Origin: Actinomycetota bacterium
GTDB taxonomy: Bacteria > Actinomycetota > Acidimicrobiia > Spongiisociales > UBA11373
NCBI GenBank assembly: GCA_018821365.1
Contig: JAHJML010000174.1
Coordinates: 10,067-74,066, forward strand
Reading direction: 5' to 3'
Length of the DNA stretch: 64,000 nucleotides
Part shown: piece after piece, positions 3,400 to 58,274 of the stretch
Position numbering within the stretch: the stretch's first letter is position 1
Layout: every line of letters starts with the position of its first letter
Made by a program: the position numbers and the translations under genes
The notes under the pieces: model-generated
Seen by the model: only the letters and a program-made list of their open reading frames with translations
What the model was told of the DNA's origin: nothing
The model's database searches: none

Positions 3400-5440
<2,041 letters not shown>

Positions 5441-5448
<8 letters not shown>

Positions 5449-5842
5449 GCGGGCGCGCAAGATCGCTGCTTGGGTGGTCACCCTCGGTCTGGTGGCAACC
5501 GTGGTCTGGGGCTTCCTGGCCGGCGAACCGACGGAGAGCGACCGGGTGTTCGCCCTCGGCGCCCGCATCAAGTGCCCGGTATGCCAGGGGGAGTCGATCC
5601 AGGAGTCGCCGTCGGAGACCGCCATGGCGATGCTCGACGTGGTGGCCGAGAAGGTCGAGGCCGGGCAGACCGACGAGCAGATCCTCGAGTACTTCACCGA
5701 TCGATACGGGGACGGAATCCGCCTCGATCCGCGCTTCGAGTTCCGAACGATGCTGCTGTGGCTGCTGCCGGCCGCCGCGCTGATCGGGGGCGGGTTGATG
5801 ATCTGGAGCCGGCGCCGCCGGCCGGGAGAGGAACCGTCATGA
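5441..5842 (+). CDS. ccmH: cytochrome c-type biogenesis protein CcmH
   Basis: GTG start overlaps the ccmF TGA (GTGTCTGA). N-terminal TM; the LRCxxC-type motif RIKCPVCQGESI; C-terminal TM. Confidence 0.8.
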
Positions 5843-6657
5843 CCGATAGCGACGACATCCGCCGCCGGGCCCTCGAGGAGCGGGCGCGGCTCGCCCAACA
5901 GGACATCGAAGACCTGCGGCGCCAGGTCGACGAAGGCGAACTGGAGGAGGCCGATGCTGCCGCGCTCGAGGAGCGCTACCGGTCGGACCTCGATGCCGCC
6001 CGCACGAGCCTGGCCGGCATGCCGAAGCCCCGCAAGAGCGCTCCTCCCGCCACGGCGCCCAGCGCCGCCGGCGGAGCCACCGCCGCCGGCAAACCGAACC
6101 GCATCCCTCTGATCGTCGTCATCTCCGCCGCCGCCATGGTGGTGTTGACCATCGCCATCGTGGTGATGGCCACCAGCGGCAACGACGCCGAGACCACGAC
6201 CGACTCCGCGACGCCTCAGGCCGCAACCGGATCGCTGGCGGAGATGGAGGCGGCGGTCGCTTCCCAGCCGGACAACAACACCATGCGGCTGGCCCTGGCG
6301 GGCCTGTACTTCGAATCCGGCGACTACATGAACGCCATGAACCACTACTCGAGCGTGACCGCCAACGACCCGACGCCCCAGGACGCTGCGGTCGCCAACG
6401 CCAGGATCGGTTGGATGGCCTGGGCGGCGCTCGATGACCCGGAGACCGCGCTGTCGTTCCTTGATGCGGCGATCGCGCTCGACCCCACCTACGGCGAGGC
6501 GATCCTGTGGAAGGCCGTCGTGCTCCTCTACGGGATGGACGATGGAGCTGCGGCCGCCCCTCTCTTGGAGCAGGTGCTGGCCTTCCCGGACCTGCCCGAG
6601 GAGCTCAGGCCGGACATCCAGTCCATGCTCGACGAGGCCCGAGGAGGCGGCCAATGA
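5839..6657 (+). CDS. CcmI/CycH-like TPR protein (putative apocytochrome chaperone)
   Basis: ATG overlaps the ccmH stop (ATGA). Acidic coiled-coil N-terminus, one TM (IPLIVVISAAAMVVLTIAIVVMA), then TPR-like helical repeats (LALAGLYFESGDYMNAMNHY...). Placed between ccmH and ccmG. Confidence 0.45.
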   Translation: MTDSDDIRRRALEERARLAQQDIEDLRRQVDEGELEEADAAALEERYRSDLDAARTSLAGMPKPRKSAPPATAPSAAGGATAAGKPNRIPLIVVISAAAMVVLTIAIVVMATSGNDAETTTDSATPQAATGSLAEMEAAVASQPDNNTMRLALAGLYFESGDYMNAMNHYSSVTANDPTPQDAAVANARIGWMAWAALDDPETALSFLDAAIALDPTYGEAILWKAVVLLYGMDDGAAAAPLLEQVLAFPDLPEELRPDIQSMLDEARGGGQ

Positions 6658-7235
6658 CCGATGCTCAGCTCAAGGGCCGCCGGCCGATCTTCTGGATCTC
6701 GGTCGGCGCCGGCCTGGTCGCGTTGATCCTTCTGGCGGTTGCCCTCGCCGATGGGTTCGGGCGGGATCCCCGGGAGCCCGAGAACATCGCCAACCAGGGC
6801 GCCAAGATCGACATGACCAGGGTGCTGCCGTTGCTCGATGGGACGGGCGATGTGGCCTTCTCCGAACTGGAGGGGAAGATCATCGTGATCAACTTCTGGG
6901 CCTCCTACTGCATCCCGTGCCGGGCCGAGCATGAGGTGCTGACCACCGCATCGGAGCAGTATCGGGATCAGAACGTCCAGTTCCTCGGCATCGTCTTCCA
7001 CGACGACCCGGACGCCGCCCGTGACTTCCTCGACACCCTCGGCTGGGGCGACGGGTATCTCTACGCGGAGGATCCCGGGGCGCGGGCCACCGTGGACTTC
7101 GGGGTGTGGGGGGTACCGGAGACCTACTTCGTCGATGCCACCGGCACCATCGTCGACAAGCATTACGGAGCGATCACCCGCGACGACCTCATCCCCGTGC
7201 TCGAATCCATCCTGGCAGGCGACTCGGCCGGCTGA
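6654..7235 (+). CDS. ccmG: thiol:disulfide oxidoreductase CcmG/DsbE (TlpA/ResA family thioredoxin)
   Basis: ATG overlaps the ccmI stop (ATGA). N-terminal TM anchor; thioredoxin fold with active site WASYCIPC. Confidence 0.75.
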   Translation: MTDAQLKGRRPIFWISVGAGLVALILLAVALADGFGRDPREPENIANQGAKIDMTRVLPLLDGTGDVAFSELEGKIIVINFWASYCIPCRAEHEVLTTASEQYRDQNVQFLGIVFHDDPDAARDFLDTLGWGDGYLYAEDPGARATVDFGVWGVPETYFVDATGTIVDKHYGAITRDDLIPVLESILAGDSAG

Positions 7236-7331: not shown

Positions 7332-8456
7332 GTGAAGGCGCAAAGAACTCACGTTTGGAGAGGATGGCGTCTCGTCGTCCTCGGGTGTGGCGCCGCCGCC
7401 GCGGCGCTGGTGCTGGTCGTGACGACGGGTTCGGCTTCTGCACAGGAGGAACAGGCCCCCCAGTTCGACAGCGAGTACTGCCTCGGTTGCCACGCCAACC
7501 CGGGAATGCAGACGACGCTGCCCTCCGGCGAGGTGCTCGACCTGACCTTCGATGTCGCCGCCCACGAGGCATCCGTCCACGGCCCCTACGACATCCCGTG
7601 TGTCCTGTGCCACACCGACGTCACCGGCTTCCCCCACGAACCGCTCGACGTGGCGGACCTGCGGGTCTGGACCCTCGAGCGAAACCAATCGTGCGCCAAC
7701 TGCCACGAGGACGAGGCGGAGAGCGCCCGGGACAACGTGCACGCCGCCGCGCTCGCCACCGGGGTGCGCGAGGCGGCGGTCTGCACCGACTGCCACGACG
7801 CCCACAATGCCCGCAAGCCGGTGGCGCACACGCCGGAGGTGGCCGAGACCTGCGGTGAGTGCCACGGCGAGATCTACCAGTTGTACGAGGGATCGGTCCA
7901 CGGCGAGGCACTCGCCACCGGTAATCGCGACGTTCCCACCTGCACCGACTGCCACGGGGTGCATGACGTCGGGGGTCCCAGCCAGTCAGAGTTCCACCTG
8001 TTCTCGCCGCAGATCTGCGCCGGGTGCCACCAGGACAAGGAGTTGATGGACCGCTACGGCGTCCGGGCCGACACCTTCGACACCTACATCGCCGATTTCC
8101 ACGGTGAGACGGTGGTGCTGTTCGAGGCGCTGGCGCCGGGTCAGGAGACCAACAAGCCGGTCTGCATCGACTGCCACGGGGTCCACAACATCCAGAGCGC
8201 CGACAATCCCGACAGCCAGACGTTCAAAGACAACATCCTCGGCACCTGCCAGCGCTGTCATCCCGATGCGTCGATCAACTTCCCCTCGGCATGGCTGGGC
8301 CACTACACCCCCTCGGCCGACAACGCCCTGCTGGTGTGGCTGGCCGGTTGGTTCTACAAGATCGTCATCCCGGTGACCATCGGCGGGATGCTCGGCTATG
8401 TCGTGCTGCTGAGCTTCAGGAGCAGGCGCTCCCGCAAGGAGGCCGCCCGTGGCTGA
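7332..8456 (+). CDS. nonahaem c-type cytochrome, signal peptide plus C-terminal TM anchor
   Basis: Nine CxxCH: CLGCH, CVLCH, CANCH, CTDCH, CGECH, CTDCH, CAGCH, CIDCH, CQRCH. N-terminal signal peptide and C-terminal hydrophobic helix. GTG start with GGGGAGA RBS. Confidence 0.85.
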   Translation: MKAQRTHVWRGWRLVVLGCGAAAAALVLVVTTGSASAQEEQAPQFDSEYCLGCHANPGMQTTLPSGEVLDLTFDVAAHEASVHGPYDIPCVLCHTDVTGFPHEPLDVADLRVWTLERNQSCANCHEDEAESARDNVHAAALATGVREAAVCTDCHDAHNARKPVAHTPEVAETCGECHGEIYQLYEGSVHGEALATGNRDVPTCTDCHGVHDVGGPSQSEFHLFSPQICAGCHQDKELMDRYGVRADTFDTYIADFHGETVVLFEALAPGQETNKPVCIDCHGVHNIQSADNPDSQTFKDNILGTCQRCHPDASINFPSAWLGHYTPSADNALLVWLAGWFYKIVIPVTIGGMLGYVVLLSFRSRRSRKEAARG

Positions 8457-9888
8457 TCGCTACCGCAGGTTCAACCTCTCGGATCGCCTCGAGCACGTTG
8501 CCCAGTTGACCGCCTTCACCGCACTGGCGGTCACCGGCTTGGTGCAGCGCTACTCGGAGGCCTGGCTGTCGCGGCGCCTCATCGACCTGCTTGGTGGCAT
8601 CGAGGCCGTCCGGATCATCCACCGAATCTTCGCCACGATCCTGATGGTGGCCGTCGTCTACCACCTGGGTGCGATCGGCTACCGCAAGTTCGTGCAGCGC
8701 CGCCCCAGGGAGATGCTCCCCACCAGCGCCGACATCCGGGCGGCCGCTCATTCGATGCGGTACCTGGCCGGCCGCGAGGCCGCCCCGCCTCTTCAGGGCC
8801 GTTTCACCTGGGAGGAGAAGGTCGAGTACTTCGCCCTCGTCTGGGGGACGTTCGTGATGATCGTGAGCGGTTTCCTGCTGTGGAACCCGATCGCCACCTC
8901 CAGGCTCCTCCCCGGGCAGTTCGTCCCGGCCGCCAAGGTGTTCCACAGCGGAGAAGCCCTGCTGGCCGTGCTGGCGGTGATCGTGTGGCACATGTACCAC
9001 GTCCACATCAGGCGCTTCAACACCTCGATGTTCACCGGATACATGAGCCGCCGGGACATGGCCCACGAGCACGCCCTGGAACTCGAGGCGATCGAAGCGG
9101 GCACCGCCTTCACGCCCCCGACCGACGATGCGTCTCGCCGCCGGGCCAAGATCTATCTGCCCGCCATCACCGGCGTGGCCGCCATCTTGCTGGGCGGCAT
9201 CTACCTGTTCGTCACCTTCGAGAACACCGCCATCGCCACCATCGATCCCCCCGAGCAGGTGGCCATCTATGCGCCGGTCGAGACCACCGGGACCACCGGG
9301 GCCACCGTGGTGACCACCACGACCCTCCCGGGTGCGACGACATCGACCACGACTCCGCTGGGAGCGTGGGAGGACACCATCGAGGCGATCTTCCGCACCC
9401 AGCGCTGCACGGATTGCCACGGCAACACCATGGCGCTGGGCGGCGTCGACCTCGCCACCTACGCTGGGGTGCTGGCCGTGGTCACTCCCGGTGATCCCGA
9501 CCGGAGCCCCCTGATCGTGCTGCAGGAGAAGGGGGCCCACCCGACGGTCCTCGACGACGGGCAACTGGCGCAGGTGCGGGCTTGGATCGCCGCCGGCGCC
9601 CTCGAGGCGCTGGGTGGCACTCCCCCGACGGGGGTGCCCGGCGGTGCGCCCGGTTGGGAAGACCCGATCTCCGGCTTGCTCGCTTCGTGCGGCTCGTGCC
9701 ACGGCGCTGCCAATCCGGCGGCGGGGCTCGACCTGACCAGCTACGAGGCTGCTCTCGCGGTGATCACTCCCGGGGACCCGGACGCCTCACGGCTCTACGT
9801 GGTCCAGGCCGCCGGGGGCCACCCGGGGCAGCTCAGCGAGGCCGACCTGGCCGTCCTCAGGGAGTGGATCGCGGCAGGCGCCCCGTAG
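8449..9888 (+). CDS. dihaem b-type membrane cytochrome (HydC/FdnI / Ni-Fe hydrogenase cytochrome-b family) fused to two c-haem domains of PSCyt1 type
   Basis: GTG start overlaps the upstream stop (GTGGCTGA). Four or five TM helices with His pairs (RIIHRIF, HMYHVH). A Thr-rich linker follows, then CTDCHGNTMALGGVDLATY... and CGSCHGAANPAAGLDLTSY..., i.e. CxxCHG-(x)n-GLDL[TS]SY modules. Confidence 0.8.
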   Translation: MADRYRRFNLSDRLEHVAQLTAFTALAVTGLVQRYSEAWLSRRLIDLLGGIEAVRIIHRIFATILMVAVVYHLGAIGYRKFVQRRPREMLPTSADIRAAAHSMRYLAGREAAPPLQGRFTWEEKVEYFALVWGTFVMIVSGFLLWNPIATSRLLPGQFVPAAKVFHSGEALLAVLAVIVWHMYHVHIRRFNTSMFTGYMSRRDMAHEHALELEAIEAGTAFTPPTDDASRRRAKIYLPAITGVAAILLGGIYLFVTFENTAIATIDPPEQVAIYAPVETTGTTGATVVTTTTLPGATTSTTTPLGAWEDTIEAIFRTQRCTDCHGNTMALGGVDLATYAGVLAVVTPGDPDRSPLIVLQEKGAHPTVLDDGQLAQVRAWIAAGALEALGGTPPTGVPGGAPGWEDPISGLLASCGSCHGAANPAAGLDLTSYEAALAVITPGDPDASRLYVVQAAGGHPGQLSEADLAVLREWIAAGAP

Positions 9889-10061: not shown

Positions 10062-11666
10062 GTGAGCGATCAGACGGACGACGGCATCGTCGAGGAACCC
10101 GCCGGCACCGACGGGATGAACCAGGTCCCGCCGACCGGGGCGCCGCCCGGCAAGGACGCCGACGGCCGTTCCCCCACGAACATCTTCACTTTCCCGATGA
10201 CGGCCATCGGGGGTGGCATGGTGCTCGCCGGTGTGGTCGCCTTCTTCGTTCTGATGCTGATCGACCTGACCAGCCAGACCGAGAACCCGTATCGGGCCAT
10301 CGTCACCTGGCTGGCGATCCCGGCGGTCATCACCCTTGGTCTCGTGATCGCAGTGATTGGGATCGTCGTCCGATCCCGGATGGCCCGGCGCCGCGGGGAG
10401 AGCATCCGATTCCTGCTGCGGATCGAGCCCTCCAACCCTCGCTACATGCGCAACCTGTGGCTGTTCCTCGGGTTGGCGGCCGTCCTGATCGTCCTGGTCG
10501 CCTACGGCGGCATACGTGCCTATGAGACCACCGAATCGGTCGCCTTCTGCGGAGAGGCGTGTCACGAGGTGATGGGGCCCCAGAACACCACCTACCTCGC
10601 ATCCGCCCACGCCAGGGTCCCCTGCACCGAGTGTCACATCGGCCCGGGACGGTCCTTCTGGGTCAAGTCCAAGCTCGACGGCATCCGCCAGGTGTGGAAG
10701 ACGATGACCAACACCTTCGACCGTCCGATCGCAACCCCGGTGACCAGTCTGCGCCCCGCCCAGGAGACCTGCGAGCACTGTCACTGGCCCGAGCAGTTCT
10801 ACGGGCAGCAGTTGGTGAACCTCAGCTACTACCGGAGCGACGAGGCCAACTCGCCGTGGACGATCAGCCTGCTGGTCAACGTGGGCGGCGGGAACCCCCG
10901 CACCGGTACCGCCGAGGGCATCCATTGGCACATGATCACCAACAACACCATCGAGTACATCGCCGTGGATCGCGATCGCCAGGAGATTCCGTGGGTGCGC
11001 CTCAACCGGGAGGACGGGACCCAGGTGGTGTACGCCGATCCGGACGCCGGCATCGGCCCCGACTCCCCCGGGGTCGAGGTCCGCACCTTCGACTGCATCG
11101 ACTGCCACAACCGGCCGAGCCACACGTTCGAGCCGCCGGCGACCGCCATCAACCTCCGCATCGCCCAGGGCAGCATCTCCCGGGACCTGCCGTTCATCCG
11201 CCGGGTGGGCCTCGACCTGCTCAACGCCGAATACCAGACCACCCCGGAGGCCAACGAGGCCATCCCGGCCGGCTTGGTGGCCTTCTACGCGGCGGAGTAC
11301 CCCGACGACGTAGAGGCGTTTCGGGCGGACATCGATCGGGCGGCAGAGGCACTGGTGAAGATCTACGACGGCAACTTCTTCCCCGAGATGAAGACCGACT
11401 ACCGGGTGCGGGTGAACAACCTGAGCCACTTCACCAACGACGGCTGCTTCCGGTGCCACAACACCGACCTCGTCTCCGACCAGGGCATCGGCATCGGCAC
11501 CGCCTGCGACACCTGCCACTCGATCGTGGCGCAGGGGCCCTCGGAGGACGTCAACGAGTTGCAGAGTGACCTGGGTGGCCTGGAGTTCGAGCACCCGGTC
11601 GACATTGGCGGCGTATGGGATCGTATCAAGTGCACCCAGTGCCACACCCCCGCTCAGGGGTACTGA
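10062..11666 (+). CDS. heptahaem NapC/NirT-family c-type cytochrome with two N-terminal TM helices (ImcH-like)
   Basis: Seven CxxCH: CGEACH, CTECH, CEHCH, CIDCH, CFRCH, CDTCH, CTQCH. N-terminal TM helices; the first two haems have NapC/NirT-like spacing. GTG start, RBS AGGGGAGA. Confidence 0.8.
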   Translation: MSDQTDDGIVEEPAGTDGMNQVPPTGAPPGKDADGRSPTNIFTFPMTAIGGGMVLAGVVAFFVLMLIDLTSQTENPYRAIVTWLAIPAVITLGLVIAVIGIVVRSRMARRRGESIRFLLRIEPSNPRYMRNLWLFLGLAAVLIVLVAYGGIRAYETTESVAFCGEACHEVMGPQNTTYLASAHARVPCTECHIGPGRSFWVKSKLDGIRQVWKTMTNTFDRPIATPVTSLRPAQETCEHCHWPEQFYGQQLVNLSYYRSDEANSPWTISLLVNVGGGNPRTGTAEGIHWHMITNNTIEYIAVDRDRQEIPWVRLNREDGTQVVYADPDAGIGPDSPGVEVRTFDCIDCHNRPSHTFEPPATAINLRIAQGSISRDLPFIRRVGLDLLNAEYQTTPEANEAIPAGLVAFYAAEYPDDVEAFRADIDRAAEALVKIYDGNFFPEMKTDYRVRVNNLSHFTNDGCFRCHNTDLVSDQGIGIGTACDTCHSIVAQGPSEDVNELQSDLGGLEFEHPVDIGGVWDRIKCTQCHTPAQGY

Positions 11667-11687: not shown

Positions 11688-11724
11688 GAGAGGCCCCGGG
11701 TTCCCCCTCTACCCGGGGCCTCTC
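11688..11724. terminator. GC-rich hairpin (14-bp stem GAGAGGCCCCGGGT/ACCCGGGGCCTCTC, 9-nt loop) between convergent genes; candidate bidirectional terminator
   Basis: Perfect inverted repeat read directly. Lies between the stop of the ImcH-like gene (11666) and the stop of the bc-complex operon (11819). Confidence 0.5.
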
Positions 11725-11818
11725 TGCGCGGCATCCCGGGTGCACCGGGCTAACCCGGCAGCGGCTCGTCGACAACGACACCCGCCGGCGCCTGAGCGAG
11801 CCTGTGCGGCCGTGCCGC

Positions 11819-13912
11819 TCAGTTGTCGGGTGCCCCCTGGCGGATCCAGGCGAGGATCGCATCCACCTCGGTGGTCGGGAGGGACCCGGAGGGCGGCATG
11901 AACCCGCCTGTCCCGGTGCCGAGCAGCCATTGGCCGAGGAGGCTGTTCTCCGCATCGCCGGGGATGACCGCGGGTCCGCTGTTGCCGCTCGCCATCACCG
12001 ACTGGTACGACTCGGCCGACCATCCGCCGGACGCTCCGTGGCACGCCAGGCACTTCGACTGGAAGATGGGCAGCACGTCGCCCGAGAAGGACACCTCCGC
12101 AACCGGCCCGGGGGTGCCCGGTCCGCCCTGCAGCGAGCGGATCAACTCGACCAGTCCGGAGATCTGCTCGTCGGTGAGGATGTCCCCCCAGCCGATCATG
12201 GCGGTGGCCGGGTGGCCGAGGTCGATCGTCTCGAACAACTGGCTGTCGGAGTGGATCGCCTGCCACTCCGGAGATTGGAACGAAGGCCCGATCCCGCCCT
12301 CCCCGTCGGCGCCGTGGCATTGGGCACAGAACCCTGCGTAGATGTCGGCGACATCCACCAGCAACGGGGCCCGCTCGACCGCCGGCGGGAGCTCGACCGG
12401 AGGGTTGTCCTGCCAGGACCGGATGTAGGCGACGATCGCCCCCACCTCGTCGGCGTCCAGGGGGCCGCCGAAGGCCAGGCCGAAGGGTGACATCCCCGAG
12501 TCGGGCTGCCCCTGGGTGATGATGGCCCTGATGGTGATGTAGTCGCGGGTCACCAGGTACTGCTCGGTGCTGATCGGGCCGATCGTGAAGGATGGATCGA
12601 CCGGGCTGGCCCCTCCCTCCCCGAACTCGCCGTGGCACACCGTGCAGTGCTGCTCGAACAGGGTCTTTCCGAGCACGGCAGGCGAACCCTGGCTGGCCTC
12701 ATAGGCGTAGTCGGTCAGGGCGTCCAATTGCTCGGCGGTGAGCACGTCGCCCCAGACCGGCATCGTTTGGTGGGAACCACCCTTGACGATGATCTCGGTG
12801 GCGGCTTCCACCGACTCGGCCACCGGAACCCGGGTTCCGTGGCACACGGCGCAGTCGGCCTCGAAGAGGGCAGCACTCGAAGCGGGCGCCGTGTCGGGGG
12901 CCACCACGTAGGCGGCCAGAGCGGCGATGTCGGCATCGGGGAGGACTCCGCCCATCGCCGGCATCGTCAGATGCCCCCCACCCTTCTCGATGATCGCCAG
13001 CAACTCGTTGCGCGTTCCGGCGAACTGGGCGCTGTTGCCGTGACAGGCGGCGCAGTTGAGCACGAACAGACGGTGTCCGTCGGGTGCGATGAGGAAGTTG
13101 ACGAGGGCGGTCGCCGAACTCTCGTCGAGCGAGGGGAGGTCGAGGCCCGCGTGCGGTTCGAACTCCGAGCCGGGCTGGAGGGCCGCCCGGAGGGTGAGCG
13201 GTTGGGTGGCAGCCAGGCCGACCGCCTGGTGGCACCCCGAACAGGAGTCCTGGAACACGGCGCTGCCGTTGGGCGAGAGGACGAAGCCGACCAGGGCGTC
13301 GATCTCGTCTGAGGAAAGGTCGCCGCTCCAGGCCGGCATCCCCTCGTGGCCGCCCTGGGAGATCACGTCGCCGAGATTGACTCCGGCGGGAACGGCGATC
13401 GAGGTGCCGTGGCACCCCGAGCAGTTCTCGGTGTAGAGGAGGGCGACCGGGTCGCCGCCGGCGGCCTCGAGGGGCGGTTCCGCCGCCAGCAGCGCCTGCA
13501 CGGTGAGGCCCAGCACCCCGAGGAAGAGGAACACCACGAACCCGAGGACGATGGGACGCCCCCGGATGTTGCGGGTGCGGGATCGATCCAGCCATGGGAG
13601 TGCCGCCAGGATGAGGAGGATCGCCCCGGGCAGGATGATCACGCCGACAAACTCCAGGTTCCCCGGGAAGAACTTGAGCAACTGGAAGAGCCAGAGGAAG
13701 TACCACTCGGGCCGGGGTGTGAACGAGTCGTCGGACGGGTTGGCCTGGTCGCCCAGTTCGGCACCGATCACGGCGGAGAGCACCACCAACGCCACGAACA
13801 CCAGCAGGGAGACTATGGCGTCCTTGAACAGGGCGTTGGGGAAGAACGGGATGCCCCGCTTCTTGTCCTCCTGGTACTTCTCCAGGTAGTCACGCCTGTC
13901 CTGTTCCCGCAT
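11819..13912 (-). CDS. cytochrome b C-terminal domain (subunit IV / QcrC-like) fused to seven class-I cytochrome c domains
   Basis: N-terminus has three TM helices and the PEWY motif (PEWYFLWLFQLLKFFP) of cytochrome b / subunit IV. Then seven CxxCH (CSGCH x2, CAACH, CAVCH, CTVCH, CAQCH, CLACH), each followed about 40-60 aa later by a Met-Pro axial-ligand-like motif. Confidence 0.85.
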   Translation of the reverse strand: MREQDRRDYLEKYQEDKKRGIPFFPNALFKDAIVSLLVFVALVVLSAVIGAELGDQANPSDDSFTPRPEWYFLWLFQLLKFFPGNLEFVGVIILPGAILLILAALPWLDRSRTRNIRGRPIVLGFVVFLFLGVLGLTVQALLAAEPPLEAAGGDPVALLYTENCSGCHGTSIAVPAGVNLGDVISQGGHEGMPAWSGDLSSDEIDALVGFVLSPNGSAVFQDSCSGCHQAVGLAATQPLTLRAALQPGSEFEPHAGLDLPSLDESSATALVNFLIAPDGHRLFVLNCAACHGNSAQFAGTRNELLAIIEKGGGHLTMPAMGGVLPDADIAALAAYVVAPDTAPASSAALFEADCAVCHGTRVPVAESVEAATEIIVKGGSHQTMPVWGDVLTAEQLDALTDYAYEASQGSPAVLGKTLFEQHCTVCHGEFGEGGASPVDPSFTIGPISTEQYLVTRDYITIRAIITQGQPDSGMSPFGLAFGGPLDADEVGAIVAYIRSWQDNPPVELPPAVERAPLLVDVADIYAGFCAQCHGADGEGGIGPSFQSPEWQAIHSDSQLFETIDLGHPATAMIGWGDILTDEQISGLVELIRSLQGGPGTPGPVAEVSFSGDVLPIFQSKCLACHGASGGWSAESYQSVMASGNSGPAVIPGDAENSLLGQWLLGTGTGGFMPPSGSLPTTEVDAILAWIRQGAPDN

Positions 13913-13916
13913 ACGG

Positions 13917-14576
13917 CTACTCCCCCTTCTTGGGAGGCGCCGAGATGCCGTTGCGCACCACCAGGTAGAGGTGGAGGCCCACCAGGAGCAGCAGGATCGC
14001 CGGCAGCACCCACACGTGGATCCCGTAGAAGCGGGACAGGGTCACCGCGCTCAGGTCGTCCCCGCCCCTCGCCACCCGCAGCGCCCAGTCACCGATGAGC
14101 GGCGTCACCTCCAACATGCGGGTGCCCACCACGGTGGCCCAGTAGGCCTTCTGGTCCCAGGGAAGCAGGTACCCGGTGAACCCGAACGCCAGCGTCAGTA
14201 CCAGCAGCCCCACCCCCGACAGCCAGGTGATCTCCCGCGGGAACTTGTACGCCCCGTGGTAGATCACCCGCACCATGTGGAGCCCGACCAGCAGGACCAT
14301 GGCGCTGGCCCCCCAGTGGTGCATGCCCCGGATCAGCCACCCGGCGGTCAGGTCGTGGGAGATGAAGTCGACGGTGGCGTAGGCATCCTGGACACTGGGC
14401 ACGTAGTAGATGGTGAGGAGGATCCCGGTGATGATCTGATTGACCACCACGATCAAGGTGGCGCTGCCGAGGGTGTAGGCCCAGTTGACCTTGGGCACCT
14501 GGCGGAGGAACACCCCATCCCAGACGAGGCGCCACCCGGTTCGCTCATCCAGCCAGCCGCCGACCCGGTCGCTCAT
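13917..14576 (-). CDS. cytochrome b6 (N-terminal four-helix dihaem-b domain of a split cytochrome b)
   Basis: 219 aa with conserved His pairs in helices B and D (GMHHWGASAMV..HMVRVIYHG ... FYGIHVWVLP) and the TGYLLPWDQ motif. Confidence 0.9.
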   Translation of the reverse strand: MSDRVGGWLDERTGWRLVWDGVFLRQVPKVNWAYTLGSATLIVVVNQIITGILLTIYYVPSVQDAYATVDFISHDLTAGWLIRGMHHWGASAMVLLVGLHMVRVIYHGAYKFPREITWLSGVGLLVLTLAFGFTGYLLPWDQKAYWATVVGTRMLEVTPLIGDWALRVARGGDDLSAVTLSRFYGIHVWVLPAILLLLVGLHLYLVVRNGISAPPKKGE

Positions 14577-14577
14577 C

Positions 14578-15051
14578 TCACGCCTCCAGGCTCACGAAGA
14601 TCTGGCCGTCCTCCACCTTGACGGGGAACTCATCCAGACCCCTCGGCGGCGGGCCGGCGACCACCTGCCCGTCGACACTGAAGACGCCGTTGTGACAGGG
14701 GCAGAAGAACTCGTTCTGGTCGGCGACCCAGCGGACCCGGCACCCGAGGTGCGTGCAGACGTTGGAGAACCCCCTGAACTCGCGACCGTCGTGGGTGACG
14801 ACGTAGACGGCCACCTCCGCCTCGGTGGAGACCCATCCACTGGTCTTGGTGACCTTCGCCTTGAAGAGGGAGGGCGTTCCAATGTCGACTCGATCAGCGG
14901 CGCCGAGTACGATCCACTCCGCCTCGCCCGTCTTCTTCTTGGCCGGGCTCAGCACGTAGGCAACCCCCGGTACCGCCCAGCCGATCCCGATGGCGGCGGC
15001 AATGGCAACGGTGGCTCTACTGAGGAACTTCCGCCGGTCCATTGGTGCCAT
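14578..15051 (-). CDS. Rieske [2Fe-2S] iron-sulfur protein, Tat-exported
   Basis: Twin-arginine signal RRKFLSRATVAIAAA. Rieske boxes CTHLGC and CPCHNG. Confidence 0.9.
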   Translation of the reverse strand: MAPMDRRKFLSRATVAIAAAIGIGWAVPGVAYVLSPAKKKTGEAEWIVLGAADRVDIGTPSLFKAKVTKTSGWVSTEAEVAVYVVTHDGREFRGFSNVCTHLGCRVRWVADQNEFFCPCHNGVFSVDGQVVAGPPPRGLDEFPVKVEDGQIFVSLEA

Positions 15052-15241: not shown

Positions 15242-17362
15242 CTACGGCCGGGTGTAGCCGGTCACATCCCCACCGACGTTCTCGATCGAGTCGATCAGCA
15301 ACTGGATCACGTACTTGCCGTTGTGGGCGAATCCACCCGGATCCTTGACGGCGTACTGGTAGTTGTAGGCCGAGCCAAGCAGCGCCGGTGTCCACATGCC
15401 GAACGCCTCATCACCACTGAAGAAGTACGGATACCGGTTCGGGTCGTAGATCAGGTCCCCGAGGCCGTATGCCTCGGAATAGGCCTGGAGCGCTGCGTAG
15501 AGGTCAGCCCGGAGGGTGTCGATCTCTCCGTACAGTCCTTCGGCCGCGTCCCCGTCACCGTCGAAGTCGCCCTCGCTGATGCGGAACGCCATCGGGTCGT
15601 CGCTGCCGTGGCAGCCTGCGCACGACTCGACCTTGACCTCCAGGGTGTGGGACCCATGGCATTCGGTGCAGGTGTCGAAACCCTCGACATGGGCATTGCG
15701 ACCCGCGTACTCCTTGCCGGCGAACTGGAACCCGCCCTGCACCTCCCCTCCGAACAGGGTCGCCCCTGCTGGGAAGTAGTGCACGTTGCGGAACCGCAAA
15801 CCCTCGACGACGTCGTTGGGTCCGGCATCGCCGATGGCCGCATTGACGCTGACCGTGGACTCGCGTCCCTGGTGGCAGTTCATGCAGAGATTGCCGTCGG
15901 CGCTCCCGCTGTCGACCTCGAGCCCGCTCGGGAACTCGACTGGGCCTGCCTCGTGGCGAGTCCAGGTGGTGAAGTCGTTGTGGCAGGTCGAGCACAGGAA
16001 GCCGTTGCTGGGCTCCTGGCTGACGGTGACGCCCTCAGCGAGGAACAGCGGCAAGCCGGCTGCACTGTGGCACTTGGAGCACGACGCCGGCACCACTGCC
16101 GGGTCGTCCTCGTCCCAGTGGCGGAAGGCCTCCTCAGAGCCGGCGAAGTGCCCATGGTCGATGCGATGGGCCGCATCGACGGCGATCGGGCTGCTCAGCA
16201 CCGAGTTGAGGTCCTCGGTGGAGTCGCTCAGCAACTGGAGGATGTACTTGCCGCCGTGGGCGAACGCCCCCGGATCCTTCAAGGCCACCTGATAGTTGTA
16301 CGCCGCCCTCACGAGGCGCGGAGTCCAGGCCGGGTAGGCATTGCCGAAGTTGGCCTCGCCCTCGGTCACGGCCCCGTCGCCGTCGGTGTCGGCGAAGAAG
16401 TACGGATAGGTCAGACCGTCGTAGACAAGCCCGGTGCCCACGGTCTCGGAGGCATACGCCTGCATCGCCAGATACAGCGTGGCGGTCGCGCCCTCGATCT
16501 CGTAGTAGATGCCTTCGGCCAGGTCGCCGTCGCCGTCGTAATCGACCAGAGAGCCCATCATGCGGACGTTCTTCAGGTCGTCCGCCGAGGTCACTCCGAC
16601 GTGACACGTGGCGCATTCCTCGATCTTGAGTTCGAGGCTGTGCGGATTGTGGCAATCCACACAGGTCTCGTAACCCTCGATGTGGGTGAAGAAGGCGTCA
16701 TAGGTCCCGCCTTCGTACTGGTAGCCGCCCATCGCCTCGTTGCCGTACTTGGTGGCTGCGGCGGCAAAGTAGTGGATGTTGATGAACCCGAGATCTTCGC
16801 TGACTTCGTCGTCACCAACGCCGGCGGCGGTGATCGCCTCGTCCACCGTCACCTTGGATGCCCTGCCCTGGTGGCAGGTCATGCAACGAGCCTCTGCACC
16901 CAGGCCGGTCAGCTCGACACCGGATGGCATCGTCACGCTGTCCAGGGCCAGGGTGGCCGCGTTGTGACAGGTCGTACAGGTGATGGTCGTGTCGGGATCG
17001 TGGGCAGCGTCGACGACTCCGGCAGCGCTCCCGTCGGCGCCGACGAAGTCCTGGAAGCCGGTACCGACGTGGCACTTGGCACAGGACTCGGGCACGACCG
17101 CCGGGTCGTCCCCGTCCCAGTGTCGGAAGGCTTCGGCGTCGGCGGCATTGTGGGCAGACGCCTCCCATGCTGCGAGGAACGGGATCTCGACCGCAGGCTC
17201 CACCACCACGGGGACCGTGGTGGTGGTCGCCGGCGCCTCGGTGGTGGTCACCGGGGCGGCGGTCGTAGTCGTTCCTGCGTCGTCGCCGCTACAGGCGGCG
17301 ATGACCAGGGAGAGGGCTGCGAGCAGTGCGCCGATCGTCGACAGCCTGGATCGATGGGTCAT
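15242..17362 (-). CDS. decahaem c-type cytochrome lipoprotein with internal pentahaem duplication
   Basis: Lipobox LSLVIAACSG followed by a Thr-rich linker. Ten CxxCH: CAKCH, CTTCH, CMTCH, CVDCH, CATCH, CSKCH, CSTCH, CMNCH, CTECH, CAGCH. The two halves are clearly homologous (AFRHWDGDDPAVVPESCAKCH vs AFRHWDEDDPAVVPASCSKCH). Confidence 0.85.
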   Translation of the reverse strand: MTHRSRLSTIGALLAALSLVIAACSGDDAGTTTTAAPVTTTEAPATTTTVPVVVEPAVEIPFLAAWEASAHNAADAEAFRHWDGDDPAVVPESCAKCHVGTGFQDFVGADGSAAGVVDAAHDPDTTITCTTCHNAATLALDSVTMPSGVELTGLGAEARCMTCHQGRASKVTVDEAITAAGVGDDEVSEDLGFINIHYFAAAATKYGNEAMGGYQYEGGTYDAFFTHIEGYETCVDCHNPHSLELKIEECATCHVGVTSADDLKNVRMMGSLVDYDGDGDLAEGIYYEIEGATATLYLAMQAYASETVGTGLVYDGLTYPYFFADTDGDGAVTEGEANFGNAYPAWTPRLVRAAYNYQVALKDPGAFAHGGKYILQLLSDSTEDLNSVLSSPIAVDAAHRIDHGHFAGSEEAFRHWDEDDPAVVPASCSKCHSAAGLPLFLAEGVTVSQEPSNGFLCSTCHNDFTTWTRHEAGPVEFPSGLEVDSGSADGNLCMNCHQGRESTVSVNAAIGDAGPNDVVEGLRFRNVHYFPAGATLFGGEVQGGFQFAGKEYAGRNAHVEGFDTCTECHGSHTLEVKVESCAGCHGSDDPMAFRISEGDFDGDGDAAEGLYGEIDTLRADLYAALQAYSEAYGLGDLIYDPNRYPYFFSGDEAFGMWTPALLGSAYNYQYAVKDPGGFAHNGKYVIQLLIDSIENVGGDVTGYTRP

Positions 17363-24064: not shown

Positions 24065-27019
24065 TCAACCCGGCGGCCGCTCCGGGACCAGTTGGATCTG
24101 GATGTAGTCGTCGAGCAGAATCAGTTCCCGGGCCAATGCACCCAGATCGAGAACGGTTGCCTCCTTGGCCCGCTCCTCTTCCGCAAAGATGTCCCCGGGG
24201 TCCTCCGCCGGCCGGAGCAGGTAGAAGATCAGCAGTTCGACGAGGCTCTCATTGCTGAACAGTTCCGATTGGCGGACCAGTTGTTCCTGGGCGATCTGCA
24301 ATTGGCCGGCCGTCGGCCCGTGGTCCCGCAGATCGGTGAGATCGGCGATCACCTCGGCGGCGATCGTGTCGAGATCGTCGGGGTCGGCGCTGATCGTGAC
24401 CGACAGTTCGATCGAAGGCGCCGGGTCGTCGACGACCCGAACCGAGGTCGACGGTGAGTACGTGGCAGAGAGTTGCTCGCGAATCCGCTCGGTGAGCCGC
24501 TGCCGGATCACCAGGTCGAGCAGATCGGCCTCCACCCTGGTGACCGGATCGAGGTCCAGAGCTACCTCCCACAGCAGCGACAGTTGGCCCAACTCCCCGG
24601 CGCCCGACTCGACCGTGAGCTCTGCGATGCCGGCCGCCCGATCGGTGCGGACGTCCTGGTAGGTCTCGCCGCTGCCACCGGAGGGGAGTGAGCCCAGGTA
24701 CCGTTGCGCCAGGTCGGCGGCGGCCGCCGGGTCGAAATCTCCGGTCAGCACGAACACGAAGTCGGCTGCGTCGGCAAACCGCTCCCGGAAGATCTCCAAA
24801 CCCCGGCCGAGATCGAAGGCATCGAGGTCTTCGGGTGAGGGCACCGGGAGGAAGCGGGGGTCGCTCCCGAACCGAGCATCGGCGATCGCCGTGGCGACGG
24901 CGAGGTCGGGGCTGGAGGTGGGGTCCTCGGCGTAGGGCCTGATCTCGTCGATGACGATGCCGAGCCCGATCTCGTCCGCTCTCGGCTGCGTCATGTACAG
25001 GTGGACCAGTTGGAAGAGGGTCTCCAGTTCGCCGGTTGCCCCCCTGGCGAAGATCCCCTCGGTGGTCTCGTCGATGTAGGGCCACACCGAGACGATCCGG
25101 CCGCTCAGGAATCGATCCAGGGCCAACTGGTCGTGCTCCCCCACCCCGCTGACGGTGACCACGTCGCCGATCGTCTGGGCCTCCACGGCGTCCTCCACCG
25201 GCAGTAGCGACCATCCCCCGAAGCTCTCCGCCCCCATCACCACCACGTTCTCGACGATGGTGGTCGGGAACAGGATCACCCGGACTCCGTTGTCCAGGGT
25301 GAGGATGTCGAGGCTGGTGGATGGCAGCGGTTCGGTGCTCCGGATGGCGGCAGGCTCCGGCGCATCCATCAACTGCTCGAAGGTCTCGGTGGTGTCGATG
25401 CGAGGTTCGAGGTTCGCCGACCTCACCCGCTCCAGGATGGCGGCGAGACCGGCCTCGGTGGGCAGATCGGCGGCGTCGTCCTGGGGCCCGACCACGATGA
25501 CCAGCGGCTCGGTCGATTGGATGGCGGCCCGGAAGGTGGCGGTCACCTGATCGACCGTCATCTCGTCGAGCAAGCGCCGCTGGAGGTCGGCCCACGCTGC
25601 GGCGGCATCGATGGGAGCACCACCGAGGTCGTGCTCCACGTAGCGGTCGGCGTACTCGGCGTCCTGGGTGGTGCCGCTTCGCTCGAACTCGAGTTCGACC
25701 CGACTGCGCACGTCGCGGACGGCCCGGTCGAGCTCCTCCCGGCCGAAACCGTGGAGGAGGGCGCGTTCCACCTCTCCGAGGAGCGCCTCGGCGGTGGCCG
25801 CCAGCTCACCGGGCTCGGCGGAGGCCGCCAGGCCGGGGCTGCGTTGGGTGCGGACCAGTGGGTTGGCGGCCGGCGCCGGGTCGAAGTAGGGGGTGCCGCC
25901 CCGGAGAGCGTCCTCCTGCAGCCTGGTCACCAGCATGTCCCACCCCAGAGCGAGTGCCATCTCCTGCCGCAGGGTGCCCACCGTGCCCTGCGGCAGGGCG
26001 GGCATCGGGTAGTTCAACTCGACGAACGATTGCCGGAACTCGGGGTCGGGCAGGATGAAGAACGCCGGGTCGGCGGCCGGCGGCGTGGAGAGGTCGGGCG
26101 GGGGCGGACCCTGCCGGGCGGGGATGTCGCCGAAGATCGACACGATGAGGCCCTCGACCTCCTCCACGTCGAAGTCGCCGACGGCCACGACGGCCATGTT
26201 GTCGGGCCGGTACCACGCCTCGTAGAAGGCCGCCAGTGCCTCCCGGGTGGTGGCTTCGAGGACGTCGGGGCCGGCCAGGGTGTCCTGCCCCTCATACGGC
26301 GTCCCCTGCAGCAGCCTGTCGATGACCCCCTCGAAGTACCGGCCGCTGAAGCTCTGCGAGCGGAGCCGCCACTCCTCGACAAGGACGCCGCGTTCGAGGT
26401 CGACCTCGACGGGGTCGATGGTGGCGGCGGCCGCCCACTCCCGCAGGACGTCGAGGCCGGTCGGCAGCAACTCGGCTCGATCGGTCGGCAAGGTGAGCTC
26501 GTAGACCGTCTCCTCCCAATTGGTGTAGGCGTTGATGTCGGGGCCGAACTCGGAGCCGAACCCCTGCAGCACCCGGATGAGGTCGTTGGCCGGGTACTTG
26601 GCGGTGCCGTTGAAGAGCATGTGCTCGACGAAGTGGGCGGCCCCGCTCTGGCCGGCTCCCTCCTGCACCGATCCGGCCCGCACGACTAGGCGCAGTTGCG
26701 CCCGTGCCCCCGGCCGGTCGTTGGCCCTGATGTAGTAGGTGAGGCCGTTGTCCAGGGCGCCGATGGTGACGCCGGGGTCGATCGTGATCACATCGGCGTC
26801 GTCGGCGTAGACCGGGATCTCGCCGATCGGGCGGGGAGCCATCGTCGTGACCGCAACGGCCGTGGTGGTGGTGGTCTCGCCCGCCGTCGAGGTGGTCGAA
26901 GGAAGGCTCGCCGTAGAGGCCGGCTCCGCCGATGGCGACGTGCACCCGGCGGCGGCCAGGGCGGCCACCAGCAAGCAGATCCTGGCCCTGTTGGCAGCCG
27001 CCTTCGGTCGTGCCCGCAT
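24065..27019 (-). CDS. M16-family zinc metallopeptidase (insulinase/pitrilysin-like), lipoprotein
   Basis: Inverted zinc motif HFVEHMLFNGT (HxxEH). Lipobox ICLLVAALAAAGC; two M16 halves. Start trimmed to ATG 27019 because the track ORF ran into the tRNA. Confidence 0.8.
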   Translation of the reverse strand: MRARPKAAANRARICLLVAALAAAGCTSPSAEPASTASLPSTTSTAGETTTTTAVAVTTMAPRPIGEIPVYADDADVITIDPGVTIGALDNGLTYYIRANDRPGARAQLRLVVRAGSVQEGAGQSGAAHFVEHMLFNGTAKYPANDLIRVLQGFGSEFGPDINAYTNWEETVYELTLPTDRAELLPTGLDVLREWAAAATIDPVEVDLERGVLVEEWRLRSQSFSGRYFEGVIDRLLQGTPYEGQDTLAGPDVLEATTREALAAFYEAWYRPDNMAVVAVGDFDVEEVEGLIVSIFGDIPARQGPPPPDLSTPPAADPAFFILPDPEFRQSFVELNYPMPALPQGTVGTLRQEMALALGWDMLVTRLQEDALRGGTPYFDPAPAANPLVRTQRSPGLAASAEPGELAATAEALLGEVERALLHGFGREELDRAVRDVRSRVELEFERSGTTQDAEYADRYVEHDLGGAPIDAAAAWADLQRRLLDEMTVDQVTATFRAAIQSTEPLVIVVGPQDDAADLPTEAGLAAILERVRSANLEPRIDTTETFEQLMDAPEPAAIRSTEPLPSTSLDILTLDNGVRVILFPTTIVENVVVMGAESFGGWSLLPVEDAVEAQTIGDVVTVSGVGEHDQLALDRFLSGRIVSVWPYIDETTEGIFARGATGELETLFQLVHLYMTQPRADEIGLGIVIDEIRPYAEDPTSSPDLAVATAIADARFGSDPRFLPVPSPEDLDAFDLGRGLEIFRERFADAADFVFVLTGDFDPAAAADLAQRYLGSLPSGGSGETYQDVRTDRAAGIAELTVESGAGELGQLSLLWEVALDLDPVTRVEADLLDLVIRQRLTERIREQLSATYSPSTSVRVVDDPAPSIELSVTISADPDDLDTIAAEVIADLTDLRDHGPTAGQLQIAQEQLVRQSELFSNESLVELLIFYLLRPAEDPGDIFAEEERAKEATVLDLGALARELILLDDYIQIQLVPERPPG

Positions 27020-27124
27020 GCGCCCTCCCGGCGGCCTCGGCTCGTTGGCCGGGATACTAGGCGGAGGGCCTCGGCCTGACGGAAGCGTATGCCCGGCAGG
27101 CTCGTGTCGGCCATGGGCTCGCGA

Positions 27125-27152
27125 GAAGACCCCCTCGCCGAAGGGGGTCTTC
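27125..27152. terminator. perfect hairpin GAAGACCCCC-tcgccgaa-GGGGGTCTTC immediately downstream (minus strand) of tRNA-Leu(GAG)
   Basis: 10-bp perfect stem read directly. Confidence 0.4.
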
Positions 27153-27155
27153 CGT

Positions 27156-27241
27156 GTCGGAGGGGGGACTCGAACCCCCACGCCCGTTATTAGGGCACTA
27201 GGCCCTCAACCTAGCGCGTCTACCAATTCCGCCACTCCGAC
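27156..27241 (-). tRNA. tRNA-Leu (anticodon GAG), type II with long variable arm
   Basis: Reverse complement reads GTCGGAGTGGCGGAATTGGTAGACGCGCTAGGTTGAGGGCCTAG...GGGGGTTCGAGTCCCCCCTCCGACA. Anticodon loop TTGAGGG; GTTCGAGTCC T-loop. Confidence 0.85.
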
Positions 27242-56003: not shown

Positions 56004-56089
56004 GCCGGGATGGCGGAATGGTAGACGCGACGGACTCAAAATCCGTTGAGCTCACGCTCGTGGGGGTTCGACTCCCCCTCCCGGTACCA
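56004..56089 (+). tRNA. tRNA-Leu (anticodon CAA), type II, CCA encoded
   Basis: GCCGGGATGGCGGAATGGTAGACGCGACGGACTCAAAATCCGTTGAGCTCACGCTCGTGGGGGTTCGACTCCCCCTCCCGGTACCA. Anticodon loop CTCAAAA. Confidence 0.85.
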
Positions 56090-56430: not shown

Positions 56431-56550
56431 CCCGGATCGCGATGCTCCGTCAGGCGGTGGCGATCGTGCTCCTGCTCGTGGTGCGCTCGATCATGGGGAG
56501 GCGGCGCAAGGCCTGAGGGCGAGGCACGGCCGCTTTCAGCCGACCTCGCT

Positions 56551-58053: not shown

Positions 58054-58274
58054 GTCAAGCCTCCCCCTGGCGTTGTGATAGCAGGATACCCGGCGTGTGG
58101 TCTTCTTTGACTTGTCCGGACAAACGCGACTCGCCGCGGTGAACGGTCAAGCTGCCCCGTCAGCCGAGGGTGAGCGGCAGCGAGAAGTCGACTCTGGTGA
58201 AGTGTCCGCAGGGATCCTGAGGGACCGTTTCACGTACCCCGTCTGAGGATCAGTCTGAACCACCGGCCCGGCAG

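Follow-up and report, generated by a model that had tools for sequence, protein, structure and literature searches.

The stretch of DNA analyzed here, 64,000 nucleotides (nt) of an Actinomycetota genome of the class Acidimicrobiia (assembly GCA_018821365.1, contig JAHJML010000174.1), to which we refer as the window, carries on its reverse strand three adjacent genes for a Rieske/cytochrome b complex, the last of which joins subunit IV to seven c-type haem domains within a single open reading frame (ORF). The three genes, called the triad in what follows, are, in the order of transcription:

14578-15051 (-): Rieske [2Fe-2S] subunit, 157 aa (PF00355, E 9.5e-11)
13917-14576 (-): four-helix cytochrome b6-type subunit, 219 aa (PF00033, E 3.5e-50)
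11819-13912 (-): subunit IV plus seven c-type haem domains in one ORF, 697 aa, with the stop codon at 11819-11821

Only 1 nt separates the Rieske and b6 genes, and 4 nt lie between the b6 stop codon and the ATG of the fusion; the same close packing was found in 36 related loci, with medians of 1 and 3 nt between ORF ends. By sequence, translation of the three genes is tightly coupled. The GC content at third codon positions (GC3) of the triad genes is 0.86-0.95, in a window of 68% GC. The order Rieske, b6, subunit IV-cytochrome c had been described in an earlier note made from the letters of this sequence; it is confirmed here and fits the 'PEWY-cyt c' kind of complex.

The Rieske subunit begins with a single N-terminal transmembrane/twin-arginine (Tat) signal segment (MDRRKFL) and carries the cluster-binding boxes CTHLGC and CPCHNGVF, which are kept in 57 related loci. 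The Tat signal and the CTHLGC/CPCHNG boxes that the earlier note had reported are all present, in a protein with a match to PF00355, although its score against the NCBIfam model of the b6f iron-sulfur subunit (80 bits) is under the cutoff. The residue pair that follows the CxCH motif and tunes the potential of the cluster is G-F or A-F in 51 of 57 members and G-F in the window, and by a published rule the G-F pair marks the low-potential (~+150 mV), menaquinol-oxidising type of Rieske protein (PMC4122944). We read the A-F pair as likewise low-potential because both hydroxyl donors are again absent. The closest solved relatives of the b6 subunit are the plastid and cyanobacterial b6 proteins (E 1e-51), and in a residue-level alignment with spinach b6 all four histidines that ligate the b haems are matched. 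In the same alignment a threonine stands where haem cn would have its binding cysteine (YTLGS against YCLGG); the CxGG motif has become TLGS in all 50 b6 proteins of the family that were checked (ALGS in one), and the haem-cn cysteine was found in 0 of 50. Judged by these residues, b6 carries both b haems and lacks haem cn. The subunit IV part matches helices E-G of solved cytochromes b and of b6f subunit IV, with transmembrane helices predicted by hydropathy at residues 32-50, 88-106 and 120-138, and its Qo motif PEWY, described in the earlier note as intact, is indeed so: it occupies residues 68-71 (nt 13700-13711) and is kept in 57 of 57 relatives. The parts for quinol oxidation at Qo and for a two-haem b chain are all present, and from the intact motifs we infer a menaquinol:cytochrome c oxidoreductase that would work by a Q-cycle.

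An arm of seven haem domains could also have arisen on paper, through a hidden frameshift or stop that merges subunit IV with a separate multihaem gene, or through a chance count of CxxCH motifs. The fusion ORF has no internal stops and a uniform GC3 of 0.90. A search with its protein returned 1,563 matches, and the best 120 of these, drawn from assemblies of NCBI, JGI, ENA and Logan, measure about 700 aa, share 48-97% identity and cover 100% of the query, with the one exception of a 564-aa fragment. Among the same 120, seven CxxCH motifs were counted in 116 sequences, eight in three and ten in one. An alignment of 115 sequences shows no variation at any Cys or His of the seven motifs, nor at the junction that leads from helix G into the first haem domain. 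At least 243 stretches of the family were confirmed in species-representative genomes, and at 50% identity the seven-haem family collapses into essentially one cluster. An exact look-up of the window's fusion protein found no record, but the same gene order is present in the metagenome-assembled genome (MAG) GCA_018819625.1 from NCBI ('Actinobacteria bacterium'), where the same 697-aa gene was called independently and the neighbouring decahaem protein is 100% identical to that of the window. No support for a merging artefact was found on the other side, as the few relatives with 4-6 motifs are shorter and look like truncated MAG genes. With more than 1,000 independent full-length homologues from various assemblies and sources, with motifs and junction invariant, and with an independent gene call of identical length, a frame-merging artefact is refuted and we leave it practically no weight; on this point the earlier note, which had named an artefact as the finding that would undo its claim, stands.

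The fusion protein can be divided as follows, from subunit IV to the C-terminus, D1-D7 being the haem domains:

13469-13912 (-): subunit IV part, residues 1-148 (Cytochrom_B_C/PetD, PF00032 at residues 64-148, E 6e-14)
12683-13465 (-): D1-D4, residues 150-410, short class-I domains in near-linkerless succession, PF13442 stretches, CxxCH at 164, 224, 287 and 354
12404-12682 (-): D5, residues 411-503, c6-like class-I domain with CTVCH and a GMSPFG ligand loop, PF00034 at 413-499
12383-12406 (-): D5-D6 linker, residues 503-510, the near-invariant proline stretch NPPVELPP
12113-12370 (-): D6, residues 515-600, CcoP/c551-like class-I domain with CAQCH and Met572
11822-12097 (-): D7, the terminal domain, residues 606-697, PSCyt1 type (PF07635, E 6e-8) with CLACH

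The seven CxxCH motifs start at residues 164, 224, 287, 354, 423, 529 and 621, and Pfam recognizes in the fusion six Cytochrome_CBB3 stretches (E 4.5e-59), Cytochrom_C, and PSCyt1 at 621-676; the top sequence match of D6 in the PDB is CcoP of a cbb3 oxidase (E 1.4e-11). The earlier note had described seven tandem class-I domains, each with a Met-Pro ligand downstream of its CxxCH. The count of seven motifs stands and the domains are mostly class I, but D7 belongs to PF07635 (PSCyt1) and not to PF13442 or PF00034. An invariant Met-Pro is found in D1 (M192-P193), D3 (M317-P318), D4 (M384-P385) and D7 (M672-P673, followed by a nearly invariant Pro674), while D5 has Met-Ser-Pro and D6 has Met572 without a proline. 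D2 contains no Met at all and has an invariant His254, and therefore one haem of the arm, that of D2, is probably bis-His ligated. As for tandem repetition, only D1, D3 and D4 are closely paralogous to one another (z 14-19 against shuffles); D2 is a degenerate relative of these three, D5 and D6 are longer and c6/CcoP-like, and D7 comes from a different subfamily. The arm is not a recent tandem array.

An AlphaFold2 (AF2) model of the fusion reached a mean predicted local distance difference test score (pLDDT) of 73.7 and a predicted template modelling score (pTM) of 0.37, so that it is believable at the level of the domains and not for the overall shape. The longer stretches with pLDDT <50 are the ef loop, the linker that follows the membrane part, the D5-D6 linker (508-516) and the D6-D7 linker (598-604), and two three-residue stretches in D4 and D6 fall under the same value; the D6-D7 linker differs in length and composition among homologues. 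Foldseek comparison of the model with the PDB returned single class-I domains only, all with E 5e-3 or worse, and a sequence search of the PDB found no solved chain with the architecture of the fusion. D1-D5 make up a near-linkerless block with D6 and D7 on linkers, and the low confidence of these linkers in the model fits tethered carriers as well as it fits a rigid wire. The arm is not a uniform His/Met wire, since D2 looks bis-His. In b6f and bc1 complexes the topology places the end of helix G on the outer side; the arm, which follows this helix, accordingly lies on the outer face of the membrane.

Relatives with fewer haems suggest how the arm was assembled. The two-haem relatives, from other Anaerolineae, align as subunit IV, a D5-type and a D7-type domain, and D1-D4 and D6 are absent; D5 is their membrane-proximal domain, and D7 is kept as the last domain both in the two-haem forms and in an eight-haem form (L058). 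The ancestral state is therefore likely to have been a dihaem fusion (D5 plus D7), to which five domains would have been added: D1-D4 beside the membrane, and D6 in between D5 and D7. Among representatives at 50% identity, the haem count in fusions of subunit IV with cytochrome c is most often 2, but 1, 3, 4 and up to 7-8 also occur. Where the arm has 8 or 10 haems (P0012, P0020, P0025, P0093), the protein has additional C-terminal domains. Similarly, variants of about 1,030-1,080 aa in the family of the decahaem neighbour described below (P0123, P0125, P0127, P0137 and similar) look like three five-haem repeats, and in both families haem number is evolving through the gain of modules.

The triad is surrounded by genes for other multihaem cytochromes, which in the window are arranged as follows:

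15242-17362 (-): decahaem lipoprotein, 706 aa, lipobox IAAC, ten CxxCH in two five-haem repeats
10062-11666 (+): NapC/NrfH-like membrane cytochrome, 534 aa, three transmembrane helices, six CxxCH and one CxxxCH
8449-9888 (+): FdnI/HydC-type cytochrome b with two PSCyt1 c-haem domains (b561-PSCyt), 479 aa (PF01292, PF07635, TIGR01583)
7332-8456 (+): nonahaem cytochrome c, 374 aa, with a signal peptide, a C-terminal transmembrane anchor and nine CxxCH
3400-7235 (+): System-I type haem-lyase set, comprising CcmF/NrfE (3400-5448), CcmH (5444-5842), a CcmI-like tetratricopeptide repeat protein (~5839-6657) and a DsbE/ResA-like redoxin (~6654-7235)

The decahaem gene lies 190 nt upstream of the Rieske gene on the same strand. 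Its structural model is nearest to OcwA, NrfA and the S-layer undecahaem cytochrome, with an octahaem nitrite reductase also among the matches; OcwA, by its structure a member of the NrfA family, is the surface (cell-wall) terminal reductase of Thermincola, a Gram-positive metal reducer (PMC6703420). We take the decahaem partner, on the strength of the model, for a lipid-anchored, extracytoplasmic multihaem protein of probable NrfA fold that is not a homologue of MtrC and could be a terminal reductase, an N-oxide enzyme or a relay. The NapC-like gene is convergent with the fusion gene, and its product matches PF03264 and TIGR03153 under the cutoff. Its first haem motif is a CxxxCH (CGEACH), kept as CG..CH in 31 of 36 relatives. 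The nonahaem gene overlaps the start of the b561-PSCyt gene by 8 nt, and its protein has matches to Paired_CXXCH and the DmsE family, again under the cutoff. The c domains of the b561-PSCyt protein are of the same family as D7 (~30% identity). They have GGHPG or GAHPT in place of the usual Met-Pro-Pro ligand loop, which suggests that their haems are bis-His ligated. The calls for the haem-lyase genes were taken from a near-identical MAG contig; ccmABCDE was not found in the 64-kb window, and about 16 loci, from both phyla, have a CcmF homologue close to the triad. System II, not System I, is expected in these phyla, and the haem-lyase set may be a dedicated one, which could serve, for instance, the CxxxCH site in the NapC-like protein.

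To count traits and neighbours we used 79 loci from species-representative genomes, which were scanned with tblastn and clustered all against all. The neighbours recur as follows:

NapC-like gene: 39 loci; immediately upstream of Rieske and on its strand in 34 of the 35 Anaerolineae-type loci
b561-PSCyt gene: 27 loci
Nine-haem gene: 22 loci
Decahaem gene: about 16-18 loci
NarL-type two-component pair: about 32 loci
NrfC-like/NrfD-like pair with an eight-haem cytochrome: 15-25 loci

In Anaerolineae the nine-haem, b561, NapC-like, Rieske, b6 and subunit IV-seven-haem genes form a co-directional row of six, with a median gap of ~60 nt between the NapC-like and Rieske genes, and in Acidimicrobiia (the window, L001 and L080) the same genes are found in two convergent operons. 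That the genes have stayed together through rearrangement and in more than one phylum is an argument for a functional coupling of the triad with its multihaem neighbours. It also goes with the size of the arm: where at least 6 kb of upstream sequence was available, 21 of the 28 loci of 7-10 haems have the NapC-like gene and none of the five with 2-3 does, in a small sample. A crude signature scan for subunits I and II of haem-copper oxidases and for bd oxidase motifs found none in the 64-kb window or the 79 loci. The two sets at the end of the list have no counterpart in the window. One, seen 2-4 kb downstream of the fusion in 15-25 Anaerolineae loci, consists of a Tat-signal NrfC-like 4Fe-4S protein, an NrfD/PsrC-like membrane protein and an eight-haem anchored cytochrome (for example L005 9552-10337, L035 13692-14951 and L014 15939-16943) and would be a fourth quinone-interacting module. 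The other, a NarL/LuxR-type response regulator with a histidine kinase of several transmembrane helices (for example L027 13577-14257 and L014 18291-19796), lies by the triad in about 32 loci and suggests a dedicated regulation of it.

All 79 loci come from MAGs, most of them labelled Anaerolineales, Anaerolineae or Chloroflexota and seven of them Acidimicrobiia or Actinomycetota. By the names of records and samples they were obtained from groundwater, deep anoxic lake water (Tanganyika, Pavin), mine water, sediments and permafrost, and from Danish soils and sediments and anaerobic reactors, habitats that are largely anoxic. The window itself is chromosomal, with its nearest relatives among the Actinomycetota, probably the Acidimicrobiia, and beyond the cytochrome region it encodes peptide ATP-binding cassette transport, tpi, pgk, uvrABC, polA and rpsA. 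Between the convergent fusion and NapC-like genes there is one further feature:

11689-11726: perfect 13-bp GC-rich inverted repeat, GAGAGGCCCCGGG...CCCGGGGCCTCTC

This repeat is a probable bidirectional terminator hairpin. A consensus scan for promoters and terminators over 11.5-17.8 kb found nothing, and it missed the hairpin because a T-run is absent. At 27154-27241 (-) ARAGORN and Rfam place a tRNA-Leu(GAG) that overlaps the 5' end of the ORF at 24065-27181 (M16 peptidase), and therefore the true start of the peptidase gene must lie further downstream. A tRNA-Leu(CAA) is found at 56004-56089, and from there to the end of the window (56004-64000) the GC content falls to 0.63-0.67 and the ORFs are mostly without a Pfam match, except for a 677-aa WD40-repeat protein (60296-62329) and a ParE-toxin-like ORF (63008-63526); this part may be an accessory island at a tRNA gene.

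Among the known Rieske/cytochrome b systems, the triad comes closest to the 'PEWY-cyt c' clade, in which a split cytochrome b has its C-terminal part fused to a class-I cytochrome c; the clade was described from Firmicutes and others, and the split form occurs also in Rubrobacteridae (PMC4122944). As in that clade and in QcrABC of Bacillus, the window has the order Rieske, four-helix b6 and three-helix subunit IV, a class-I cytochrome c on the C-terminus of subunit IV at the outer face, PEWY and a low-potential Rieske protein, and the hosts are Gram-positive-type lineages, including the split form in basal Actinobacteria. By its sequence the window complex agrees with every feature of the clade except the haem-ci cysteine; b6 lacks the haem-ci/cn Cys that Bacillus has (YCFGG), a residue that is not universal across the clade (PMC4122944). 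What sets the triad apart from the clade and from Bacillus are its seven haem domains in place of one, the terminal PSCyt1 domain, and its place within an island of multihaem cytochromes. The two- and three-haem fusions of Anaerolineae and FCPU426 (L061-L079; P0254-P0279) have homologous Rieske, b6 and subunit IV proteins (54-67% identity for b6) and share the D5-type membrane-proximal domain, the two-haem forms also the D7-type end, but they are without D1-D4 and D6, and multihaem neighbours were present in 0 of 5 well-flanked loci. With the actinobacterial QcrCAB (of the CIII2CIV2 supercomplex) the window complex shares the phylum and a multi-haem class-I cytochrome, and probably also the use of menaquinol, the lack of a soluble cytochrome c and a direct relay to the next complex; unlike it, QcrCAB has a long, unsplit cytochrome b and a dihaem QcrC that is a separate subunit. 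D4-D6 resemble this QcrC weakly, and the NCBIfam scores remain far from their cutoffs (125 against 500 for bc1_QcrB_actin, 64 against 200 for QcrC and 44 against 275 for QcrA). From b6f the triad differs in its c haems on subunit IV and in the absence of CxGG; the NCBIfam scores for b6, subunit IV and PetC are under the cutoffs, and no PetA-like (cytochrome f) gene was found at the locus.

The earlier note had also been reminded of anammox and Geobacter Cbc complexes, and here the likeness proved loose. The anammox complexes Kuste4569-4574 and Kustd1480-1485 have a separate cytochrome of 6-8 haems, a five-helix subunit IV, and NAD(P) oxidoreductase and HAO-like subunits, the NAD(P) oxidoreductase modules being carried by the two larger complexes (PMC12954380). 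They share with the triad a b6-like four-helix b, a subunit-IV-like protein and a many-haem cytochrome c that replaces cytochrome f, while the triad has a three-helix subunit IV, fused haems, and neither a flavoprotein gene nor one for an HAO-like subunit in the operon. In Geobacter, CbcBA combines a dihaem b with a separate seven-haem subunit and lists no Rieske subunit, the multihaem CbcA having its own C-terminal anchor, CbcL joins a dihaem b to nine haems in a fusion of b and c parts, and ImcH, with seven haems, and CbcL serve acceptors above and below -0.1 V, respectively (bioRxiv 10.1101/2021.04.15.440034). The window's b6 scores 223 bits against the Geobacter ExtP model (cutoff 290), with 22 against 150 for ExtQ, and unlike ExtPQ and Cbc the triad has a Rieske protein and class-I haems. 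ImcH, CbcL and CbcBA are not known to run a Q-cycle, and they carry c3/c7-type bis-His haems. It is rather the neighbours that match Geobacter, and these by parts list only: the NapC-like protein (seven haems, three transmembrane helices) resembles ImcH, and the nine-haem protein with the FdnI-type dihaem b resembles a CbcL that is split. Geobacter and this island have in common several quinol-oxidising entry points per organism. A further likeness is to the OcwA of Thermincola potens and the S-layer system of Carboxydothermus, which by the model of the decahaem neighbour probably share its NrfA-family fold, in a cell type that has no outer-membrane porin-cytochrome conduit, although OcwA has nine haems and the neighbour is a tandem of two five-haem modules. 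The quinol oxidases of the Carboxydothermus pathway are CymA-like, a CISM anchor or ActA-like, not Rieske/b (PMC7829351), and the OcwA paper mentions no quinol oxidase (PMC6703420). A 'bc complex' appears in genome papers on Chloroflexi with no description of its cytochrome (PMC5826079), and surveys of Anaerolineales, in which many large multihaem cytochromes led to a suspicion of extracellular electron transfer, leave this complex unmentioned (PMC7399161). A full-text literature search, with few subscription papers within its reach, turned up no account of a subunit IV that bears many class-I haems, and a prior mention is possible. The kind of complex is thus known (b6c-type), and its seven-haem form is apparently undescribed.

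Taking these observations together, we interpret the triad as a low-potential, b6c-type menaquinol complex III whose haem arm feeds extracytoplasmic multihaem partners, a reading to which we assign a probability of roughly 60%. Its architecture is observed; the direction of flow, the partner and the extracellular role we infer. Menaquinol would be oxidised at Qo, from where one electron would return through bL and bH to the quinone pool, in a Q-cycle that builds proton-motive force, and the other would pass through the Rieske cluster (~+150 mV) into the arm. Entry could be via D1, nearest the membrane in the sequence, or via D5, the ancestral Rieske-facing domain; the electron would then cross the compact D1-D5 block, the arm standing in for a soluble cytochrome c, and the tethered D6 and D7 would probably deliver it to the membrane- or lipid-anchored multihaem cytochromes encoded alongside. 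The leading candidate for the acceptor is the decahaem lipoprotein with the probable OcwA/NrfA fold. Because of the Rieske potential, only acceptors above ~+100 mV would come into question, namely Mn(IV), chelated Fe(III), humics, positive-potential electrodes, and, via partners, O2 or N-oxides, which excludes low-potential iron oxides. In this scheme the triad would be the Q-cycle branch of a conserved respiratory island of several modules, whose most likely task is to pass electrons to acceptors of fairly high potential outside the cytoplasm or outside the cell. The earlier note had proposed that the arm serves a fixed, distant partner in place of a soluble cytochrome c. The evidence that agrees with it is circumstantial, consisting of the synteny with multihaem genes in two phyla and two gene orders and of the OcwA-like model of the lipoprotein. 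A bolder version of the same reading is possible but doubtful: a potential-graded extracellular system of monoderm-type Anaerolineae and Acidimicrobiia with three entries, NapC/ImcH-like, CbcL-like and Rieske/b6, that converge on an OcwA-like surface decahaem cytochrome, with Rieske/b6 as the high-potential, Q-cycle and most energy-conserving branch, and with the whole exchanged between phyla as a unit.

Several points weigh against electron delivery to multihaem partners. The arm's pTM of 0.37 is too low to give its shape or length. The synteny with three other quinone-interacting modules could reflect co-regulated alternatives and not a shared chain. The decahaem gene was found within 10 kb in only about a third of the well-flanked loci, and its family is far bigger than that of the fusion (4,983 against 1,563 matches). 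A Rieske cluster of ~+150 mV cannot usefully reduce low-potential Fe(III) oxides, and therefore 'classical' iron-oxide respiration through the triad is unlikely. The lack of linked oxidase genes is no sure guide either, as qcrABC of Bacillus is likewise not known to be linked to oxidase genes. The bc complexes of related Chloroflexi, moreover, have been interpreted as plain aerobic complex III (PMC5826079), and the triad might be nothing else: the arm would then be an enlarged equivalent of cytochrome c1/c in a cell without soluble periplasmic cytochromes, feeding oxidases or denitrification enzymes encoded elsewhere in the way that dihaem QcrC feeds aa3 in actinobacteria, and the neighbours would be unrelated or co-regulated respiratory options. 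The core features, all intact, suit such a complex, as do the His/Met class-I domains typical of oxidase-directed carriers, the resemblance of D6 to CcoP of cbb3 and the weak one of D4-D6 to actinobacterial QcrC, and a Rieske potential class suitable for O2 or N-oxide acceptors. Nevertheless, signatures of oxidases, nir, nor and nos are absent within 10 kb in the 79 loci and from the 64-kb window, and the expansion from two to seven haems coincides with the arrival of the multihaem neighbours. Characterised oxidase-directed complexes manage with one or two haems, so five extra invariant domains need another reason, and the habitats (groundwater, deep lake water, sediments, anaerobic reactors) are largely anoxic. 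We regard an ordinary complex III as the less probable explanation, though one with a real claim.

Electrons might also run the other way: a donor outside the cell (Fe(II), a mineral in reduced form, a cathode, a partner cell) would supply them to the decahaem protein at the surface and by it to the arm, and proton-motive force would drive an uphill reduction of menaquinone by Rieske/b6, as has been proposed for the bc1 of iron oxidisers. A chain of mostly His/Met haems and a Rieske protein at +150 mV would lie near the Fe(II)/Fe(III) couples at neutral pH, and modules of the CbcL/MtoC type occur in metal reducers and oxidisers alike (PMC6295460). A cultured relative among the Chloroflexi is reported to carry out both anodic and cathodic electron transfer (PMC5808234). 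Against this, markers of carbon fixation or of known iron oxidation such as Cyc2 are absent from the window, and the flanking genes for peptide uptake and housekeeping suggest heterotrophy; the sequence cannot tell direction, and we consider uptake improbable. Outward delivery from menaquinol to extracytoplasmic multihaem cytochromes remains the reading we prefer.

In every characterised Rieske/cytochrome b complex known to us the electrons go to a cytochrome of one or two haems or to a soluble carrier. A seven-haem arm joined to the catalytic core departs from this pattern and is invariant in hundreds of uncultured species, themselves abundant in groundwater, sediments, soils and reactors. 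The series of fusions with 1, 2, 3, 7, 8 and 10 haems documents the accretion of domains on a bioenergetic enzyme, and genes now called 'c-type cytochrome' or 'mono/dihaem cytochrome c family protein' could receive better labels. Their wealth of multihaem cytochromes has raised the suspicion that Anaerolineae and some Actinobacteria practise extracellular electron transfer (PMC7399161). Should the arm connect the quinone pool with the co-encoded surface cytochromes, it would give these organisms a route outward while the Q-cycle still conserves energy, and if the reading with three entries is true, this would be the first Rieske/cytochrome b complex dedicated to respiration with external acceptors. 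What makes the triad interesting is above all this possible link between a Q-cycle enzyme and a network of extracytoplasmic multihaem proteins.

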